From positions 7,046 to 71,045 of the forward strand of contig JAMCWG010000005.1 of the NCBI GenBank assembly GCA_023475235.1: a stretch of 64,000 nucleotides of DNA, given 5' to 3'. The notes beneath the pieces were generated by a model. The model saw only the letters and a program-made list of their open reading frames with translations, ran no database searches and was not told the DNA's origin. Of the stretch, positions 12,652 to 51,195 are shown piece by piece (positions within the stretch are counted from its first letter, which is position 1; every line of letters starts with the position of its first letter). This DNA is from Chloroflexota bacterium (lineage in GTDB: Bacteria > Chloroflexota > UBA6077 > FW602-bin22 > JAMCWG01). The translations under genes were made by a program, and so were the position numbers.

Positions 12652-12752
12652 CTGAACTCCCTTCTCCCCCCCCTGGGAGAAGGGTCGGGGATGAGGGTAG
12701 ATCGCCCTCACCCTAACCCTCTCCCAGAGGGAGAGGGAACCGTCATTGTTCA
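12652..12752. repeat. REP-like imperfect palindromic element made of three consecutive short hairpins
   Basis: Hairpins CCTTCTCCC/GGGAGAAGG, TGAGGG/CCCTCA and CCCTCTCCC/GGGAGAGGG, flanked by CTGAAC ... GTTCAG. Intergenic, between glgC and the MFS gene. Confidence 0.5.
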
Positions 12753-32214: not shown

Positions 32215-32388
32215 CAGGGCCTTTTCAAAGTCCGTTGATCCTGCTGCCCGTGGGGCTTACCTCACCCCCCGGCCCCCTCTCCGCGCGCGGAGAGGGGGTG
32301 GCCGAAGGCCAGAGGTGAGGTAAACTACCGCTGGCAAGGCAACCGAAGCGCTGTGTGATTCCTGGCTGGCAACTTTGAAAAGGCCCAA
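32215..32388 (+). mobile_element. MITE-like hairpin element, copy A
   Basis: CAGGGCCTTTTCAAAGTC ... AACTTTGAAAAGGCCCAA terminal inverted repeats. Inner inverted repeat GCTTACCTCACC / GGTGAGGTAAAC. Apical perfect palindrome CCCCCTCTCCGCGCGCGGAGAGGGGG. Collinear with copies at 46208 and 50663. Confidence 0.6.
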
Positions 32389-32520: not shown

Positions 32521-32531
32521 GCAAGTCAAAC
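32521..32531. repeat. Left copy of 11-bp direct repeat GCAAGTCAAAC bracketing the two-gene cassette
   Basis: Identical 11-mer at 34198-34208. The left copy lies 16 nt beyond the stop of the 32547..33416 gene. Confidence 0.6.
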
Positions 32532-32546
32532 GCCAGTCAAGACCGG

Positions 32547-33416
32547 CTATAGCTCATATATGACAACGAAGTTGGCCCCGTCGCTTCCCGACTGCTGTCG
32601 AATTCTAACACCACACAACGCCTCGATTATCCAGCTTCTCATTACGGAGCAGATGTTAGGATACCGATTGCGCAAGCCCATCAATTTCGCGACGTCGCCC
32701 GAGCGCACCTGCAGGGTCTTCCTCCCTGCCTTCCTGGCTTCGGCCACTAGTTCGTCCCGGATGAACTTCCTAATTGCGTCTGCTTGACCACCAGTCTGAG
32801 ACGGGAGCTGCCTATCAGGCGGCTGGCCCTTCGAAACCGTGGTGCGATGGTTTTCGAGGAGACTCGTGTCGCCAAGCTGTAATTTCTCCTGCGGTTCTTC
32901 TGGTAACAGCACAACAGCCACTCCCTCAAGTTTATCTGCATAACGATTCTTCAGGATTGCAAAAGTATTTCTGTCTGTAACGAAGAAGTACCTGAAACTT
33001 GCTTTGCACGCAGCCAGTTTTTCCAAATCCCGAGTTACTGATGCTCTCTGGTTGGCCCCAAAATCCGTTACACCATATGGTACAGTCGTTTTCACCTCTG
33101 CTATCACTCGTTCTCCGTTGGAGGCCAGTTCGTCTATATCTAAGCCTGGAGCACCCTGGAGTTTGGCATCGATATCGAACGCGGGCAAGTCGTGGCGTGA
33201 CATCAAGAACTGCTTCGCCATTAGGCACGCGGCGAAGCTAACGTCATTGTCGAAGTTCCCCAAGAGCCGCTTAATGGCCGCCAAGTAGTGGAACCAGTAG
33301 TCACAATCGGCCTGCTGTTCATCCAGATGATTCGCCATAAGAAACTCCGAAAGCTGCCGCAGCTTGCCGGATATTGTTGTCAAGCGATTGCTTTCGCCAG
33401 GTGTTCGACTTATCAT
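32547..33416 (-). CDS. Hypothetical protein with PD-(D/E)xK-like (restriction-endonuclease-fold) motif and a small basic C-terminal domain
   Basis: 289 aa. ATG preceded by GGAGGA with a 5-nt spacer. Candidate catalytic pattern GLDIDELASNGERVIAEVKT (D ... E-x-K) followed by the hydrophobic strand YFFVTD. Low-GC codon usage. Confidence 0.6.
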   Translation of the reverse strand: MISRTPGESNRLTTISGKLRQLSEFLMANHLDEQQADCDYWFHYLAAIKRLLGNFDNDVSFAACLMAKQFLMSRHDLPAFDIDAKLQGAPGLDIDELASNGERVIAEVKTTVPYGVTDFGANQRASVTRDLEKLAACKASFRYFFVTDRNTFAILKNRYADKLEGVAVVLLPEEPQEKLQLGDTSLLENHRTTVSKGQPPDRQLPSQTGGQADAIRKFIRDELVAEARKAGRKTLQVRSGDVAKLMGLRNRYPNICSVMRSWIIEALCGVRIRQQSGSDGANFVVIYEL

Positions 33417-33452
33417 AGCTCTCCTCCTTTCGATCGATATGCCTATCGCGCG

Positions 33453-34157
33453 TTAGCTCCCAAACGTGGGCTTCGCCCTCTTTAGAAAAGCTTTCTCAGC
33501 GTTTCTTGTCAACCTAGCCATGACGAGTGCGTCCAGCCTTGACGAGAGTCGGTTCCACAACTTGAAGCAATGCACGTTGCCTGCCGGGTCTTCGGCATGT
33601 CGAACACGGACAACGAGCACATAGTCATCCAACAACAAATTCGTGCTCCCGTCGCCGACAATCTCACTTAGCCCGCTTCGGTAGAAATCTGGCCGTATAA
33701 CGAATGCTCTCGGCGTTTGTACCGTTTCGTCTTTTCTCTTGGCGATGATCGCTATGTTCTGCGGTCGCAATCTGGTAACAATAATGCTTCTGGCTGCTGC
33801 TTTGTGCTCCGGTGTCATCACGCTTCGGATATGTTCATTCCATATGAACTCAAACGGTCTCCCGTCGAAACTGTTTTCCCAGTCGGTGCCAATCTGATTA
33901 TAAAAAAGGGCATCAACCATGCATTGCTCGACGATTCCCCTTACGTGAGCATCTACTACAGGTCCCCACCAAGGAGTGTCGCCAAGCGAAACGATTATGT
34001 CCCACCGCCTCTGGCCGTCCTCATCCCCAGTGCTCTTGCAGTTCAGGATAATGGGAGGAAATCTCATACGACTCGCCACCAGTCTTCTGGGTATTTCCCA
34101 TCCGACAACGCCAGCGAAGAACACGACCACTGAAGGCAACCAATTTGCCCAATCCAC
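33453..34157 (-). CDS. Hypothetical protein with N-terminal transmembrane/signal-anchor helix
   Basis: The GTG at 34157 is preceded by GGAGGTG with a 4-6 nt spacer. N-terminus (M)DWANWLPSVVVFFAGVVGWEIPRR. I recognise no domain. The ORF as tracked begins at TTG 34184, which overlaps the putative -10 box. Confidence 0.55.
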   Translation of the reverse strand: MDWANWLPSVVVFFAGVVGWEIPRRLVASRMRFPPIILNCKSTGDEDGQRRWDIIVSLGDTPWWGPVVDAHVRGIVEQCMVDALFYNQIGTDWENSFDGRPFEFIWNEHIRSVMTPEHKAAARSIIVTRLRPQNIAIIAKRKDETVQTPRAFVIRPDFYRSGLSEIVGDGSTNLLLDDYVLVVRVRHAEDPAGNVHCFKLWNRLSSRLDALVMARLTRNAEKAFLKRAKPTFGS

Positions 34158-34183
34158 GGGGCACCTCCGCTCGAAGTGCCCCA

Positions 34184-34192
34184 ACTATACCA
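34184..34192 (-). promoter_or_regulatory. Extended -10 promoter element (TGgTATAGT) for the cassette
   Basis: The minus strand reads TGGTATAGT about 27 nt upstream of GTG 34157, just inside the right direct repeat. Confidence 0.35.
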
Positions 34193-34197
34193 TCATT

Positions 34198-34208
34198 GCA
34201 AGTCAAAC
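34198..34208. repeat. Right copy of 11-bp direct repeat GCAAGTCAAAC
   Basis: Identical to 32521-32531. Lies between the cassette promoter and the stop of the FGGY kinase gene (34239). Confidence 0.6.
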
Positions 34209-45115: not shown

Positions 45116-46207
45116 TTGAGACTCTCCTTTAAGTAAGTTTGTAGTCTTTCCTGGGCCAGAGTCAGACCTTCCTTAGACTGTGGGGGCCATTGCCCCGACA
45201 GCACGGATGTGGCATAATAGCCATCGGGCTTGGGCAGGCTACTGTGCCTCCTTGTCCGGGGTCCTGGCAGGTCATCCCTGTCAGGACCTTTCTACGCGGT
45301 CAGGACAATCAAACGCACCACCTCCCTTCGGTGGCACCAGCGAGCGGCACTAGCTAAGTAAAGCCCGGCTCAGGTTGCGCTGGACCGGGCTTGGTGTTAG
45401 CATAGGAACTGGAACCGGTGTGCACGCACCTGGTACCATAGTCCCGTATGGTCTCGCCACCATCCGGGACCATTTTTTGGCCTTGACGGACTTACTCGGG
45501 CTCTTCCTCCCCGAGCAAAACACAAAGTGCCAACTTGCCCTGCCAATGGAGGCTCAAGTTGGCACTGCTTGTGTCATAGGTCACCCCACGGACATCGACC
45601 GACTACCAATACTGCTGTCGGCGTGGCCTACGCTTTCTTGCTTTCGCAAGCACCGCCGGCTTGCACCAGCCTGCCCGCCAATCGGGGAATGGCGAGCGAC
45701 GCCCGGTTTTTTGGCGGCACCTATCCCGTCGACGAAAAATGGGGGGCACAACGAGCTTAGATAACCCTATCAATCCCCAGACCCGGCTGCACGCCGGCAA
45801 GATGCTCCGAACACAAGACTAATACCAAGTCTGTTGCTGTCAGGTGCATCTGAAGTCGACAGGGCATTGGAGGAGTGAGACGCGCCCTAGGCTTGACTAA
45901 GGTCTTCGCTACGCTGGCCTCGCTGACCAACGCGAGGATAGTCAATCGAACCGGCTTCTCTTTGTCCATTGTACCCCGGCTCAAAATGGCTGTAACGAGT
46001 ATTATTCCACGTTTCGTCTGCCTGAATTCTGACGCGTTTCATATGCTATTTATTCCCGGCACGTTGCGGTACTCTTCCGCCATTCCTCATAGGCAATCCC
46101 CGCAATGCCTGGGGATTCCTCACGCGGAGCAGGCACGCACGCTGGGTGGATGGACCTTTAGTTGGGGCAGGCCAGGTTTTCTGCCGCGGCTCTATCTTTT
46201 CTCAAAC

Positions 46208-46380
46208 TAGGGCCTTTTCAAAGTCCGCTGATCCGGCTGCTCGTGGGGTTTACCTCACCTCCGGCCTTCGGCCACCCCCTCTCCGCGCGCGGAGAGGGGG
46301 CCAGGGGGTGAGGTAAACTGCCGTTGGCAAGGCAACCCAAGCGCTGTCTGATTCCCGGCTGGCGACTTTGAAAGGCCCTG
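46208..46380 (+). mobile_element. MITE-like hairpin element, copy B, with 9-bp target-site duplication
   Basis: TAGGGCCTTTTCAAAGTC ... GACTTTGAAAGGCCCTG termini. Flanked by TTCTCAAAC at 46199-46207 and 46381-46389. Confidence 0.7.
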
Positions 46381-46556
46381 TTCTCAAACAAAGGGCGCCT
46401 GCCCCGCCAGCGAAGCAAGCTGACCACCGATGTCGGGCTATTGAGCCAAGGGCTGGATGGCTTAACGCGCTACTGTAGCTGGATGGCGGAGCTCGCTGGC
46501 CGGAGCACCAGCTCCCGGCGACCAGGCTCGCACCGCGCGGGCACAACCGAAGACCA

Positions 46557-46925
46557 TCAAACCCGGCAAATGCACTGGTTGACCAGCCTGAGCAGCTCGT
46601 CCAGGTCGAAGGGCTTGGCCAGGACGGCGTAGGGGTCGATCTCTGCGGCGCAAAAGGCAGGATTGCTCGTGGCCGTGATGACGATGATGGGCGCATGTGG
46701 CCCCGGCAGCCGTTTGTACACGCGCGAGAATTCCCATCCATCCATAACAGGCGTGCGAAGGTCGAGCAGAATCAGGTCGGGCTGCCACTCCTCGATAATA
46801 TCGAGTGCGGCTTTGCCGTGCACGGCAGTCATGACCTCGTAGCCCTCGTCGGCCAAGGCCAACTCGACGAACTCTCGGATGCTCTCATCGTCATCAACAA
46901 CCAGTACATGCATTGGTGAATTCAC
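46557..46925 (-). CDS. Single-domain response regulator (CheY-like receiver)
   Basis: VLVVDDDESIREFV ... DLILLDLRTPVMDG ... IIVITAT. The start overlaps the kinase stop (TAGTG). Confidence 0.9.
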   Translation of the reverse strand: MNSPMHVLVVDDDESIREFVELALADEGYEVMTAVHGKAALDIIEEWQPDLILLDLRTPVMDGWEFSRVYKRLPGPHAPIIVITATSNPAFCAAEIDPYAVLAKPFDLDELLRLVNQCICRV

Positions 46926-49900
46926 TAGTCTCCCCTTTCGTCTCCCCTCGCGTGGCCCTCTCCTTGGGCCATTGTGTGGCCTCCCCCCTCAGCGCCGGCA
47001 GTGTCGTCGAGCGCGTCATCGGCCGAGCAGCCGGCAGATTCATATCCCACCGGCAGATTGACGACGAAGCGCGTCCCGCCTTCGATAGGAAACTCAGCCT
47101 CAATGCTGCCGCCGTGGAGATTCACGATCTGACGGCTGATGAACAGCCCCAAGCCCATGCCTCCCAGGCGATGGGCCGCGTGCGCCTGGTAGAAGCGGTC
47201 AAAGATGCTTTTCCGATGCTCTGGGGGAATGCCAATGCCGTGGTCGGTCACCGACATGCGCAGGGTTTCAAGGCTTGACGCCGCCAATTCGACATCGATC
47301 GGCCCGCCATTCGGACTGTACCGGATAGCATTGTCTATCAGATTGGTTACCACTTGCTCGATGCGCAACGGGTCCACAAATGCCGGCAGGGAGGACGGAG
47401 CACGCACACCGATGTCGTGCACATTGGTGGTTGCCTGCGCTGCGGCTGCCACCCCCTTGACCAGGGCCACCAGATCGGTATCCTGCCGGTCAAGAGACAG
47501 CTTCCCCGCCTCGATACGCGAGACATCGAGCAGGTGGTATGTCAGACGAGTCAGCTTGTCCGACTGCTTGTCGATGGTGTCCAGCGCCCGCCGCATCCGA
47601 TGCGGGTCGACTACGCCGCAGTTGCCCATCTGATGTATCATAAGCTGGGCGAAGCCCCGCAGGCTGGTCACCGGCGTCTTGAGCTCGTGGGCCGCCACGG
47701 AGAGGAATTCGTCACGGGCTCGAATCGCCTCCTGGGCTTGCCGGTAAAGCCGGGCATTGTCGATCGCGGTCCCACAGCGGCGGGCCACGTCCTCCATTAT
47801 GGCCAGATCAGGTGCCCCGTATCGGCGCCCGGAAGACATCGACGCGATGGAGATGATTCCAACCGTATCTCCCCGGACGGTAATGGGCACGACGATGTAC
47901 GAGATGTGCCCCATTTCACGGACTGCCCGAAGGTGGTCTGCATCCTCGATTGCGGCCTCCAAGGCTGAATCGGAGACCTCCGTGACGAGGACCGGCTGGC
48001 CGGTGCGCAGCGCTTTCGCATACGAGCTTTCTCCGCTCTCGTCCAGGCAGTACCGACAATAGGTCTCGCGCGCCAGTTCCTCCACCGAGCTATCATGAAT
48101 GACCGAGGCAACCAGGCGCGGCGGGCCGTTCTCCGGGACGATGTCGACGGCGCACCAGTCGGCGATGGTGGGCACGGCGAGATGGGCCACACTGGCGAGT
48201 ATGGTCTCGTCATCCAGCGAGCTGGAGAGTTGCTTGCTCGCTTCCGCCAGGAAGCGCTGCGCATCCTCTGCCCGTTTGCGCTCGGTGACATCGCGAGAGA
48301 TGCCGCCGAGCATAAATCCTTGCTCGGTCCTGACCGGAAAGGTCATCGACTGCAGCACGCGCCGCTCGCCATCCGAACGCTCAAGCTCTCGCTCCACGAG
48401 CTGGCCCAGCCACGGTCCTCGTCCGGTCCTCAACGCTTCCAAGATCTCGCCTTTGATTCGCTCGTACAATTCCGGTCGTTTCTTGTCGCCGGAAGCTACC
48501 TGGAATTGCACATCCCAGAGCGGCCGGCCCAGTACCTCGGCCTTTCTTAACCCGGAGAGCTGCTCCTGGCCCTCGTTCCATTCCACGATCAGGCCCTGCT
48601 CATCCACCAGGACGATCCCATCCTCTGACCGCTCGACGATACTCCGGAACTTTTGCTCCGACTGCCGCAGCGCTTCCTCGGCACGCTTGCGCTCGGTGAT
48701 GTCCGTCAGCAGCGACACCACGCCGGCGATGGTACCGTCGGCGTCGCGGAGCGGCGCGGCGCTAATGGCTATGATCAGCCGGGTCCCGTCGGGATGCTCG
48801 AAGGCCTGCTCGAAGCCGTAAATCGGCTTGCCCGTTCTTAAGACCCGGACGAAGGGATGGTCACTCTCTACCAGCGGCTTGCCTTCCACGGTGGTGTTTT
48901 TCCAGGTGACGTTGCTGTGGGTCCTTTTGACGATCTCAGCACGCGGAAGGCCAAGAATCCTTTCGGCGGCAGCGTTCACCAGCGTTATCTGCCCATCGCG
49001 GCTGAAGGTGACCACGCCGTCGGTCATCGTCTCGAACATGCTGGTCAGTTGCTCTTCGCCCTCGCGCAGGGCCCTCTCCGCACGCTGGAGCTCGGTGATG
49101 TATCCCTCACGCTGGTCCTCGCTGGCCTGAATTTCCGAGGCCATCCGGTTGAAAGCATCGGCCAGTTCCTCCAGCTCGGTTGGCCCGGTAACATCCACTT
49201 TGCCGGCGAGCTCGCCCTGCCCGATAGCCAGAGCATGCCGTCGAAGACGCCTCATCGGGACGGTGAGATTTCGGCTTATGATCATCGCGGCGATTCCGCC
49301 CAGGACCGCGGTGAGAATGATCAGGCCGACGTCTCTCCACAGGTCTTGCAGTACCGGACCGACAGCCTCCTGCTCCGGCCGGCTGGCTATCGCCACCCAG
49401 CCGATGGAGCGGATGGGCACTTGCCCGGCAATCTGCTTTCGCTCGTCAGGCATCAAGACGAGGGCCCCGCTGTACTCCTGGCCGGCCAGGGCCTGAGCGA
49501 TCCGCGGCTCAGCTTCAAGCACATTGCGTTTTTCCCATGGCAGGTCGACCTCGGGGTAGCGGTACACAAGCTGGCCTTGCCGATCGATGATGGAAAGGGA
49601 GCCCTGCCCGGCCCTCGCCAGGCCAAGCACCTCGGCTAGATGGGTTGGCTCCACTTCAGCAAGTAACACGCCCTGCAGCAAGCCTTTTTCATCACGCATA
49701 CCGGTGGCGATATGGAACCTTGGCTCGCCGGCCGACCTCGACAGCGATAGATCGCTCACGACCCAGTCCTGTCCATCGAGGATTCCCTTGAGATAGGGGC
49801 GGTCGGTGATCTTGGTGCCGGTGACAATGGAGCCGGTAGACGCGATGACGCGGCCATCAGAGTCTGCCCAGCTATAGCTGAGGATCGAGGGATACCCGCG

Positions 49901-50272
49901 TGCGCTTTCGGCGAGGAGCCGGTTCATCTCTGCGGGCGAAGGCGGGTGCGGCGAAGTAAACGCCAGGCCGATAGCCAACTGCTGATGCAAGACATCTCGA
50001 ATATACGCATCGAAGGTTGCGGCCACCGCCCGGGCTAGCTCGACGTTCTCCCTGTGCTCTGTAGCGAGCCTTGTATTGAAGGAGCTGTAGTAGATAAGCC
50101 CCTGAACGAGCAGGACCGGCCCTAGCAGAACGAGCAGCAGGAGGAACAGCGTTCCCTGAATACTGTCGAAGAAGAACTGACCAACTCTGCCCCCTGGTGC
50201 TCCAGGCAGTCTGTTGTCGTGCGGCGTAGTGGGTAGATTGTGCTGGCCGATCTGAGGCGCTTCACTTCCCAT
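46925..50272 (-). CDS. Multidomain sensor histidine kinase (TM, Cache-like, TM, HAMP, PAS, PAS, GAF, HisKA, HATPase)
   Basis: H-box FLSVAAHELKTPVTSL, N-box VVTNLIDNAIRYS, G-boxes DHGIGI / GMGLGLFISRQIV. Two PAS-like blocks and one GAF-like block. The ATG at 50272 is preceded by GGTGAGGA. Confidence 0.9.
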   Translation of the reverse strand: MGSEAPQIGQHNLPTTPHDNRLPGAPGGRVGQFFFDSIQGTLFLLLLVLLGPVLLVQGLIYYSSFNTRLATEHRENVELARAVAATFDAYIRDVLHQQLAIGLAFTSPHPPSPAEMNRLLAESARGYPSILSYSWADSDGRVIASTGSIVTGTKITDRPYLKGILDGQDWVVSDLSLSRSAGEPRFHIATGMRDEKGLLQGVLLAEVEPTHLAEVLGLARAGQGSLSIIDRQGQLVYRYPEVDLPWEKRNVLEAEPRIAQALAGQEYSGALVLMPDERKQIAGQVPIRSIGWVAIASRPEQEAVGPVLQDLWRDVGLIILTAVLGGIAAMIISRNLTVPMRRLRRHALAIGQGELAGKVDVTGPTELEELADAFNRMASEIQASEDQREGYITELQRAERALREGEEQLTSMFETMTDGVVTFSRDGQITLVNAAAERILGLPRAEIVKRTHSNVTWKNTTVEGKPLVESDHPFVRVLRTGKPIYGFEQAFEHPDGTRLIIAISAAPLRDADGTIAGVVSLLTDITERKRAEEALRQSEQKFRSIVERSEDGIVLVDEQGLIVEWNEGQEQLSGLRKAEVLGRPLWDVQFQVASGDKKRPELYERIKGEILEALRTGRGPWLGQLVERELERSDGERRVLQSMTFPVRTEQGFMLGGISRDVTERKRAEDAQRFLAEASKQLSSSLDDETILASVAHLAVPTIADWCAVDIVPENGPPRLVASVIHDSSVEELARETYCRYCLDESGESSYAKALRTGQPVLVTEVSDSALEAAIEDADHLRAVREMGHISYIVVPITVRGDTVGIISIASMSSGRRYGAPDLAIMEDVARRCGTAIDNARLYRQAQEAIRARDEFLSVAAHELKTPVTSLRGFAQLMIHQMGNCGVVDPHRMRRALDTIDKQSDKLTRLTYHLLDVSRIEAGKLSLDRQDTDLVALVKGVAAAAQATTNVHDIGVRAPSSLPAFVDPLRIEQVVTNLIDNAIRYSPNGGPIDVELAASSLETLRMSVTDHGIGIPPEHRKSIFDRFYQAHAAHRLGGMGLGLFISRQIVNLHGGSIEAEFPIEGGTRFVVNLPVGYESAGCSADDALDDTAGAEGGGHTMAQGEGHARGDERGD

Positions 50273-50662
50273 TATAGTCCTCACCTGAATGGCCCTTCGG
50301 GAGCGTCACAGGAGTCGTTGGCGCACGGCAATCCAGGTGTCTATGTAGTCTTTGTGCCTCTGTGAGCTCTACTTATCGGCCTAGTAGAGCCAGCGAGCAA
50401 TTAGCAGCGCGCCAAACTAGTATCGGACTTATGCGCCGTGTAGTCAAGGCCTATGCAATTCGCTTATTGGCGACCCAGCGGTCCGCGCCGCGGTGAAATG
50501 CTATTGGGTGCCCTGGCTGGCCCGACTCCCGGCCACCGGGAAGCCCGCCGGGCCAGCTATACGCCGGGTAATCTGCTTTCGCAACGGGCTGATGGCGTCT
50601 TTTTTGCCGCCTAGACTATAGTAGCCGCGCGAGCCGTTGTCAAGAACAAACACGGCCCGGCA

Positions 50663-50955
50663 CAGGGCCTTTTCAAAGTCCGCTGACCCGGCTGCTCGTG
50701 GGGTTTACCTCACCCCCGGCCTTCGGCTTTGCCCCTCGCCAGTCGCCAGACCCGCCATCCTCACCAGCAGTCAAAGAAGGCGACCCCTCGCCACGGCGAG
50801 AGTGCCGCAGGCATCTTGGCGGGAGGCGAGTCGCCTTCGGAGACCTCTCCGAGCGCGGAGATGGGGCGGCCGAAGGCCGAGGGTGAGGTAAACTGCCGTT
50901 GACAAGGCAACCCAAGCACCGTCTTGTTCCTGGCTGGCGACTTTGAAAGGCCCTA
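50663..50955 (+). mobile_element. MITE-like hairpin element, copy C, with 10-11 bp target-site duplication and about 120-nt apical insertion
   Basis: Same termini as copies A and B. Flanked by (A)CGGCCCGGCA at 50652-50662 and 50955-50965. There is extra sequence between the GGCCTTCGGC and GCCGAAGGCC arms. Confidence 0.7.
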
Positions 50956-51195
50956 CGGCCCGGCAACCGCGTTGACGAAAGCGAGAGCGTACCGTAGGAT
51001 GGAATTGAGTGGGCTGATAGCCAGCCCAGGGCAGTGCAGTGCAGAAACCGACTGTCCGTCGCCACTCGCCTCGGTGGCGATGCAGCCACACTCTGGGACC
51101 AGTGGGAGACCGACCTGCCACGACTATGCTGGCTTCGCTCCCCTGGCAGGCCAGCGATAATCGCTTGTGAGGCAGTTAGGGGGAGGGTTGACGAT

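Follow-up and report, generated by a model that had tools for sequence, protein, structure and literature searches.

A family of probable ISAs1-derived MITEs in a Chloroflexota genome, lying in a promoter register that is shared with autonomous ISAs1 elements

We report that a Chloroflexota MAG (2.85 Mb in 196 contigs, 63.6% GC, 75% complete) carries a family of short repeats that are very probably MITEs with ISAs1 termini, moved in trans by an ISAs1 transposase and inserting in a fixed register with promoters. The family is documented by its termini, its target-site duplications and its copy number, by an IS partner whose family could be assigned, and by a positional rule that was measured against controls and found again in two replications. 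Three copies (A, B and C) lie in the window, i.e. the whole 64-kb stretch of DNA that was analysed; their features, and those of the autonomous partner, are collected in Table 1.

Copy B has inverted termini of 17/18 bp and an exact 9-bp duplication (TTCTCAAAC) on its two sides. A first-pass annotation made from the letters of the window had described these termini, an inner repeat, a GC palindrome, an asymmetry of 22 nt between the arms and a clean 9-bp duplication, and each of these could be reproduced at its coordinates; the 5′ arm measures 52 nt and the 3′ arm 74 nt. The element folds as one long hairpin (z = −7.9 as DNA and −7.0 as RNA), and none of 200 shuffled sequences folded as well. 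Its 5′ terminus equals the termini of L016, an ISAs1 element from Ktedonobacteria, except at base 1 (T vs C), and its target is a portion of the T-tail of a terminator-like hairpin. The annotation was also right in placing the three copies between genes and in the same orientation, in a window devoid of transposases: all three are on the plus strand between Pfam-recognisable genes, and no transposase was found within the 64 kb. Pfam recognises nothing in the ORFs that overlap copies B and C, and these ORFs were judged to be GC-rich artefacts.

Table 1. Coordinates of the three MITE copies, their parts and neighbouring sites (positions in the window), and of the autonomous IS (positions on C11)
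Feature	Coordinates	Strand	Remarks
MITE copy A	32215-32388	+	174 nt; without clean duplication
MITE copy B	46208-46380	+	173 nt; arms match family profiles (nhmmer E 4e-18 and 1e-21)
Copy B, 5′ terminal inverted repeat TAGGGCCTTTTCAAAGTC	46208-46225	+	ISAs1 type, YAGGG start
Copy B, 3′ terminal inverted repeat GACTTTGAAAGGCCCTG	46364-46380	+	lacks one A of the family consensus
Copy B, target-site duplication TTCTCAAAC, left	46199-46207	not assigned	9 bp
Copy B, target-site duplication TTCTCAAAC, right	46381-46389	not assigned	9 bp
Copy B, inner inverted repeat GGTTTACCTCACC / GGTGAGGTAAAC	46247-46259 / 46307-46318		
Copy B, apical GC palindrome	46275-46300		
Copy B, captured REP-like palindrome ACCTCACC...GGTGAGGT	46247-46318	+	mirror form relative to copy A
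Copy B, GGCCTTCGGCC mini-hairpin within the palindrome	46263-46273		
Terminator-like hairpin of upstream kinase/receiver operon	46392-46420	-	
MITE copy C	50663-50955	+	293 nt; centre enlarged by ~120-nt hairpin module
Copy C, flanking repeat ACGGCCCGGCA	50652-50662 and 50955-50965		10-11 bp; 1-nt boundary ambiguity
Promoter-like site at copy C 5′ tip	50643-50615	-	TTGACA (50643-50638), 17-nt spacer, TATAGT (50620-50615)
Promoter-like site at copy C 3′ tip	50972-51000	+	TTGACG, 17-nt spacer, TAGGAT
Autonomous IS	C11:11655-12927		1273 bp; perfect 20-bp termini TAGGGTCATGTCAAAGTCAG; one 395-aa ORF

Profile searches with both arms place copy B in a family of ~45–50 copies genome-wide (44–47 5′ arms and 40–43 3′ arms). 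At least 13 contig ends stop within a copy, so the family evidently breaks the assembly. Copies range from 154 to 590 nt, which keeps them below the ~600 bp taken as the limit for a bacterial MITE, lack coding capacity and bear 18-bp terminal inverted repeats (YAGGGCCTTTTCAAAGTC) at both ends. For 27 copies both ends are assembled, and in 18 of these exact direct repeats of ≥8 bp adjoin the termini, as compared to none of 135 controls in which one boundary was shifted; the duplications, whose absence from other copies the first-pass annotation had considered damaging to its transposon reading, are therefore a property of the family. The mode is exactly 9 bp (11 of the 18), and apparent duplications of 10–11 bp are within boundary jitter. 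By crude gene calls, 26 of the 27 complete copies fall between genes, although coding sequence makes up ~81% of the genome. A terminal extension module of ~60 nt, of which there are 23 copies, likewise ends in YAGGG and shows 9-bp duplications, as does a diverged TTTTCATTGTC subfamily. Apparent co-variation from arm to arm (CCACC with TGACG vs CCGCT with TGGCG) was traced to linkage within subfamilies and does not represent base-pair compensation. The nearest genomes available for comparison belong only to the same order; exact-protein look-ups for two flanking genes came back empty, neither species-representative genomes nor JGI metagenomes contained the MITE arm pattern, and the pattern for the left flank of copy B had no match in metagenomes.

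The proposal that a non-autonomous element had been inserted by a transposase gains support from the genome-wide duplications and from an ISAs1 partner in the same genome: the IS on contig C11 has matching termini and encodes an ISAs1 transposase (NCBIfam NF033564, 175 bits vs a cut-off of 70, covering positions 2–311 of 314; Pfam DDE_Tnp_1_assoc, PF13808, 65 bits). A sequence search returned no solved structure for this protein, and its closest relatives come from Chloroflexota MAGs. The IS is the sole full copy in the assembly, and C54 holds the relic of a second, internally deleted ISAs1. Six MITE copies, several with intact duplications, carry the IS-type left terminus (TAGGGTCATGTCAAAGTC, 18 of 18 positions) paired with a MITE-type right terminus; the remaining copies share the terminus of the C11 IS at 15 of 18 positions, the majority MITE terminus thus differing at three. 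Past the right terminus the similarity between MITE and IS continues subterminally. At one locus a MITE and the IS stand in tandem in a single 9-bp target (GCGGCCGGT–MITE–GCGGCCGGT–IS–GCGGCCGAA), and the C11 IS's own flanking repeat matches at 7 of 9 positions. Relative to its homologues, the C11 transposase has two in-frame insertions formed by small GC hairpins, and within a conserved motif it shows a Leu-to-Pro change; it may therefore be inactive, to judge from its sequence.

The termini of MITE and IS begin with TAGGG or CAGGG, are 18–20 bp long and conform to the type YAGGG...CAAAGTC. Related IS elements of other Chloroflexota have YAGGGNNNNNTCAAAGTC termini of the pattern YAGGG...TCAAAGTC, and the termini of L016 are those of the MITE consensus; duplications are 9–10 bp among the ISAs1 relatives (9 bp in L011, from Chloroflexota), within the 8–10 bp that characterise the family. 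All of this agrees with the ISAs1 family (ISAs1, IS1358, the E. coli H-repeat/ISEc1 and ISArsp11), in which YAGGG termini of 18–20 bp, shared with the MITE, and duplications of 9–10 bp are common, and in which a full element of 1.2–1.3 kb has a single DDE transposase (NF033564). Inverted repeats of 14–22 bp starting with CAGGG and direct repeats of 10 bp are described for ISAs1 (PMC11946415), and the left inverted repeat of ISArsp11 (CAGGGCTGATGCAAAGTCG, with a 10-bp direct repeat) is close to the termini found here (PMC6305408). The MITE departs from the family in having no transposase and, in its place, a REP-like palindrome.

This centre of the MITE is a captured REP-like palindrome, ACCTCACCCCC...GGGGGTGAGGT, that is independent of the arms: it also stands alone in the source genome, and genomes of the order and class to which this one belongs, which have no MITE arms, carry it many times, at some places in tandem. 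Its interior spans 42–477 nt and is built of mini-hairpins such as CTCGCC-NNN-GGCGAG, of which ~400 are scattered over the genome; the ~120-nt hairpin module in copy C is likewise present elsewhere. The centre would be dispensable for movement, and it may grow and shrink by gain and loss of mini-hairpins, giving the observed range of copy lengths.

To describe the insertion sites we read the flanks of 78 MITE ends outward from the element tip, promoters here being consensus-word matches only. TTG begins at offset 16–19 in 36 of the 78 ends, where ~4 would be expected from the intergenic density of TTG, and a match to TTGACA at five or more of six positions occurs at these offsets in 21 ends vs 0.7 expected. 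When the flanks are aligned on TTG, positions +23 to +28 read T-A-n-a-a-T, i.e. a −10 box after a 17-nt spacer (TAnnnT signal 17 nt after TTG); such a box co-occurs in 18 of the 36 TTG-bearing ends, as compared to 6.4 expected from hexamer-matched intergenic controls. These ends mostly face the 5′ end of the next gene (28/35, 80%), the start codon being at a median distance of 147 nt from the tip, and the intergenic context is divergent for 10 of 21 copies vs 19% expected. Taking either signal (TTG at 16–20 nt and/or a −10 box at 39–44 nt), 51 of the 78 ends are in register (10–18 in shifted controls), 21 of 22 elements have at least one such end, and there are 19 complete promoters in register (0–2 in controls). 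The two ends of the MITE behave alike. Copy C sits between two promoter-like sites, both directed outward, one from the 5′ tip to a kinase operon, with its −35 beginning 19 nt from the tip, and one from the 3′ tip to an oxidoreductase gene. Copy B is an exception to the register, a scan for consensus words having found no promoter in register on either side of it. The duplicated 9 bp (GC 61%) yielded no consensus of their own. We also considered a hybrid promoter formed from the TTGACA/TTGAAA of the terminus and a −10 in the flank, and rejected it: this would need a −10 at offset 9–14, and the boxes are at 40–44.

The same register recurs in 62 autonomous ISAs1 elements from other bacteria. 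A first set comprised 37 elements from Chloroflexota, Acidobacteriota, Proteobacteria, Truepera and others, at loci retrieved by their transposase and with boundaries taken from the YAGGG termini (22 with exact 9–10-bp duplications); a second set added 25 elements from other Chloroflexota genomes with no overlap with the first. TTG falls at offsets 18 and 19 in nine flanks each of the 72 in the first set, vs ~1.1 per offset elsewhere, and at 17–20 in 15 of the 49 flanks in the second, vs ~2.9 expected. By the either-signal measure, 40/72 ends of the first set (shifted controls 8–14) and 27/49 of the second (5–10) are in register, with at least one such end in 31/35 and 21/24 elements, respectively, and in 73 of 81 elements over the MITE set and both IS sets. 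Complete promoters in register number 12 and seven in the two IS sets, as compared to 0–2 in controls. Perfect examples are TTGACA-N17-TATAAT at L015 and at L109, and TTGCAT-N17-TATAAT at L111. Across the three sets, 124 ends have no TTG at 16–20, and here strong −10 boxes (TATAAT matched at five or more of six positions, including the A of position 2 and the T of position 6) give 25 hits at offset 40–44 vs ~0.5 per offset elsewhere, many of them extended (TGnTATAAT). Because the −10 keeps its register even when the −35 is missing, the promoter as a whole appears to set the position. The inner parts of the termini differ among the ISAs1 clades examined, so the target word is not simply a copy of the terminus. 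A last set from Bacteroidota and Cyanobacteria, seeded from a Dyadobacter ISAs1, gave weak signals, with many unreliable boundaries in AT-rich cyanobacterial loci; there, the Bacteroidota −7 box TAnnTTTG appears at offset 37–41 in four of 15 ends and once elsewhere, at boundaries that are partly unreliable, a slight hint that copies in this phylum follow its own box.

We infer mobilisation in trans with cut-and-paste chemistry as follows. The MITE would be a non-autonomous deletion derivative that has kept the 18-bp terminal inverted repeats of an ISAs1-family IS, and an ISAs1 DDE transposase, acting in trans, would bind both termini, excise the element and insert it through 9-bp staggered cuts, a stagger that is proposed as the cause of the 9-bp duplication. 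The candidate source of transposase is the IS on C11; alternatively, the enzyme may have come from a relative whose termini match exactly and which is lost or missing from the assembly. The tip would land ~18 nt upstream of the −35 and ~41–42 nt upstream of the −10 of sigma-70-type promoters directed outward, which corresponds to ~−54 from the predicted transcription start, the duplicated 9 bp then representing about −54 to −46 of the promoter, the zone of the distal UP element in E. coli. Since autonomous ISAs1 elements of several phyla share the register, it is probably a property of the transposase family.

Two other accounts of the element itself deserve mention. The first-pass annotation had raised the possibility that the asymmetric structure encodes a small RNA, and one might go further and regard the repeats as copies of a gene for a small or cis-regulatory RNA, and not as transposons. 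In favour of such a reading are a strong fold (z = −7) and conserved arms, yet no Rfam family scored at its gathering threshold, relaxing the limit to E = 1 brought up only matches expected by chance, and when 12 aligned copies were checked for covariation with RNAalifold the covariation term was −0.15 kcal/mol, with double changes in three of 52 pairs. A centre that ranges so widely in length argues against a conserved RNA, a consensus scan found no promoter or terminator word within the element, the copies point both ways with respect to adjacent genes, and the duplications, together with an IS of identical terminus type, account for the copies; we consider an RNA gene family very improbable, and this part of the annotation was not supported. 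Still more remote is the idea that a RAYT (Y1) transposase mobilises the whole element as a palindrome of REP/REPIN type. It draws on the abundance of the REP-like centre on its own in the source genome and its relatives, but REPINs make no target duplication, while the 9-bp duplications seen here lie outside ISAs1-type termini, and no Y1 transposase (PF01797) was found in the 75%-complete assembly. On these two grounds we have ruled it out for the element as a whole.

As to what sets the register, we put the chances at about even that the cue is RNA polymerase sitting at the promoter. This is favoured because −35 and −10 each suffice, because complete promoters are enriched and because the register holds across differing termini. 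In its fuller form, in which ISAs1 transposases and their MITEs would read the promoter-bound holoenzyme or its distortion of the DNA, place the tip at ~−54 and follow the promoter type of the host (−35/−10 in most phyla, −33/−7 in Bacteroidota), the idea falls slightly short of an even bet. A transposase might instead read TTG- and TAnnnT-like words beside the 9-bp target directly, with RNA polymerase uninvolved, promoters then being hit because such words occur in them. Several IS families do favour targets like their own ends, IS30 and IS911 among them, and the termini of the Chloroflexota clade hold an outward TTGACA- or TTGAAA-like hexamer 9–14 nt from the tip, so that a DNA-binding domain may favour a TTGACA-like word. 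We regard direct reading as the main competitor, though a rather unlikely one: the register stays constant while terminus sequences differ between ISAs1 clades, apart from the hexamer the flanks show no likeness to the termini, ends without TTG keep a −10, often extended, at 40–44, complete promoters exceed what the hexamer predicts, and in Bacteroidota the host-specific −7 box lies at 40–41 in three to four of 15 ends, these being small numbers. It is also conceivable that insertion is essentially random in intergenic DNA and that later selection for harmless or useful sites produced the register; insertions in genes are certainly removed by selection, and the copies are indeed intergenic, many of them in divergent promoter regions. 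Selection, however, cannot produce a window of 3–5 nt, nor can it account for the MITE and the IS in tandem in an identical 9-bp target, and the register is common to elements with unrelated terminal sequences across phyla; we hold this explanation to be improbable.

In the literature searched we found no description of an ISAs1-derived MITE or of an ISAs1 target rule. Such MITEs seem to be undescribed, and insertion in register with promoters, which the MITE and the examined ISAs1 elements have in common, is new as far as we found. Bacterial MITEs derived from other IS families are well known (Correia elements, Nezha, and IS630-, IS5- and IS1-derived forms), and the present family resembles them in being short, non-coding, multi-copy and intergenic, with termini shared with an IS, duplications and a hairpin over the whole element; it differs in its ISAs1 parent, in a centre made of a separately mobile or expandable palindrome array, and in its fixed promoter register. 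Integration in register is known from Ty3 and Ty1 (upstream of Pol III genes), Tf1 of S. pombe (Pol II promoters), group IIC introns (after terminators), and IS1397/ISKpn1 and IS621 (REP sequences). Like all of these, the elements examined here find a safe place to land at an exact spacing from a landmark of transcription or from a structured motif between genes; those systems are retroelements, introns or other IS families, and as far as we found none of them is a bacterial DDE IS registered at ~−54 of sigma-70-type promoters.

Taken alone, the MITE is an ordinary kind of object that explains many contig breaks in the source MAG. If the target rule is true, promoters guide a widespread IS family to its landing sites to within a few nucleotides, which would offer a mechanistic reason for the tolerance of ISAs1 elements and would predict regulatory rewiring, with activator and UP-element sites cut away from core promoters. 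It might further serve as a computational promoter marker for uncultured phyla without transcriptomes, and as a natural system for promoter-directed DNA insertion; if RNA polymerase is what is read, ISAs1 targeting would parallel that of Ty3/Ty1 in a bacterial DDE system. The rule is open to direct testing by standard transposition assays. A promoter rule that held for the whole family would be at odds with a large survey that found an excess of ISAs1 between convergent genes (PMC9208149), and under selection a Frankia ISAs1 element is reported to have jumped into the coding sequence of pyrF (PMC11946415).

The inner palindrome and its mini-hairpins have counterparts of their own. REP/BIME sequences and the Rickettsia palindromic elements are known GC-rich intergenic palindromes, and the sequences described here are similarly GC-rich, intergenic, partly tandem and variable, some of them being in-frame within genes. 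They differ from REPs, for which a survey is available (PMC3733652), in that no RAYT was found and there are no GTAG/CGTC tags, and in the ISAs1 termini and duplications of the MITE as a whole. Among the genes that contain in-frame mini-hairpins is the transposase of the C11 IS. In the window, the centre of copy B is the mirror of that of copy A, positions 43–111 of copy A matching the minus strand of copy B at 97%.

Nested REP-like palindromes of the form CCCTCACCC..CCCTCTCCC-NNN-GGGAGAGGG..GGGTGAGGG, which also make up the centre of the MITE, are scattered throughout the source MAG (G000). They are composed of mini-hairpins with CTCGCC, GTCGCC, TCTCCC or CCCGCC stems; genome-wide we count 409 such hairpins in 246 clusters, 199 of which lie away from any MITE arm. 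The palindrome core is also plentiful in three related genomes, G001, G005, and G039, drawn from G000's own order and class, and in places it forms 45-51-bp tandem arrays. Our search of the 75%-complete G000 assembly found no RAYT gene.

The mini-hairpin units also occur within coding sequence, as in-frame insertions recalling the Rickettsia palindromic elements. Two are found in the transposase gene of the ISAs1 element that is the candidate autonomous partner of the MITE (C11:12230-12560), encoding two peptides that no aligned homologue has: APPEAGVLRH, which follows the DAL motif, and SPWRPVASGGL, which precedes WPG. A further such insertion, in an IS110-type transposase (C169:17897-17911), is possibly the VARGDSPRR peptide directly C-terminal to the DEDD domain. 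Another may be present at a G001 locus (L092, C252:2100-2500), where an ORF of nucleotide-cyclase-type appearance contains two to three copies of the G000-type palindrome unit, followed immediately by ..GIGIATGPVVAGNVGG... Seven paralogous G000 ORFs, which are possibly solute-binding proteins, share a ..PRPGESPVAT.. motif right before the mature domain, and have N-terminal linkers rich in Ala and Pro. In all seven the motif is encoded by a GAGTCGCC-NNN-GGCGAC hairpin, and what is conserved may be either a peptide signal or a nucleic-acid hairpin.

Coordinates of palindromes, elements, and associated features
Feature	Source	Position	Strand
REP-like palindrome example	Window	12663-12734	
REP-like palindrome example	G000	C63:44803-44915	
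REP-like palindrome example	G000	C163:1217-1411	
REP-like palindrome example	G000	C66:12654-13130	
Terminator-like hairpin, receiver/kinase operon	Window	46392-46420	-
Second MITE subfamily	G000	C112:39124-39348, C72:6134-6424, C67:42442-42961	
PRPGESPVAT ORFs	G000	C43:13678, C77:14235, C87:4649, C93:6297, C112:68871, C122:7488, C123:13998	
ISAs1 loci with TAnnTTTG	Hymenobacter, Saccharicrinis, Bacteroidota MAGs	L134, L150, L152	

Among the MITE copies in the window, the target of copy B, TTCTCAAAC, falls within the T-tail of the terminator-like hairpin of a receiver/histidine-kinase operon; the insertion site of copy B is therefore a terminator tail and not the neighbourhood of a promoter. 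Copies B and C flank this operon in direct orientation (46208-50955) and have separate duplications, so that they represent independent insertions; recombination between them could remove the operon. Copy A (32215-32388), the one without a clean duplication, is separated by 130 nt from a low-GC two-gene island (32521-34208). The promoter-like flank of copy A is several nucleotides out of register, as if rearranged.

G000 also carries a diverged second MITE subfamily, in which TTTTCATTGTC replaces TTTTCAAAGTC and which bears a terminal extension module of ∼60 nt (TAGGGCCTGCTCTTAAAATAGCG...; 23 copies of the module). Some copies of this subfamily or its module likewise show 9-bp duplications. 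Remnants of another ISAs1 element, a distant relative, lie at C54:14020-14450; an internal deletion has joined its N-terminal DPRR motif region to its C-terminal HWxIEN region, and the relic looks like an intermediate en route to a MITE.

The −7 promoter box TAnnTTTG is specific to the phylum Bacteroidota. In the flanks of Bacteroidota ISAs1 copies it occurs at an offset of 40-41 nt from the tip of the IS, the position taken by the −10 box in other phyla, although numbers are small and some boundaries unsure.
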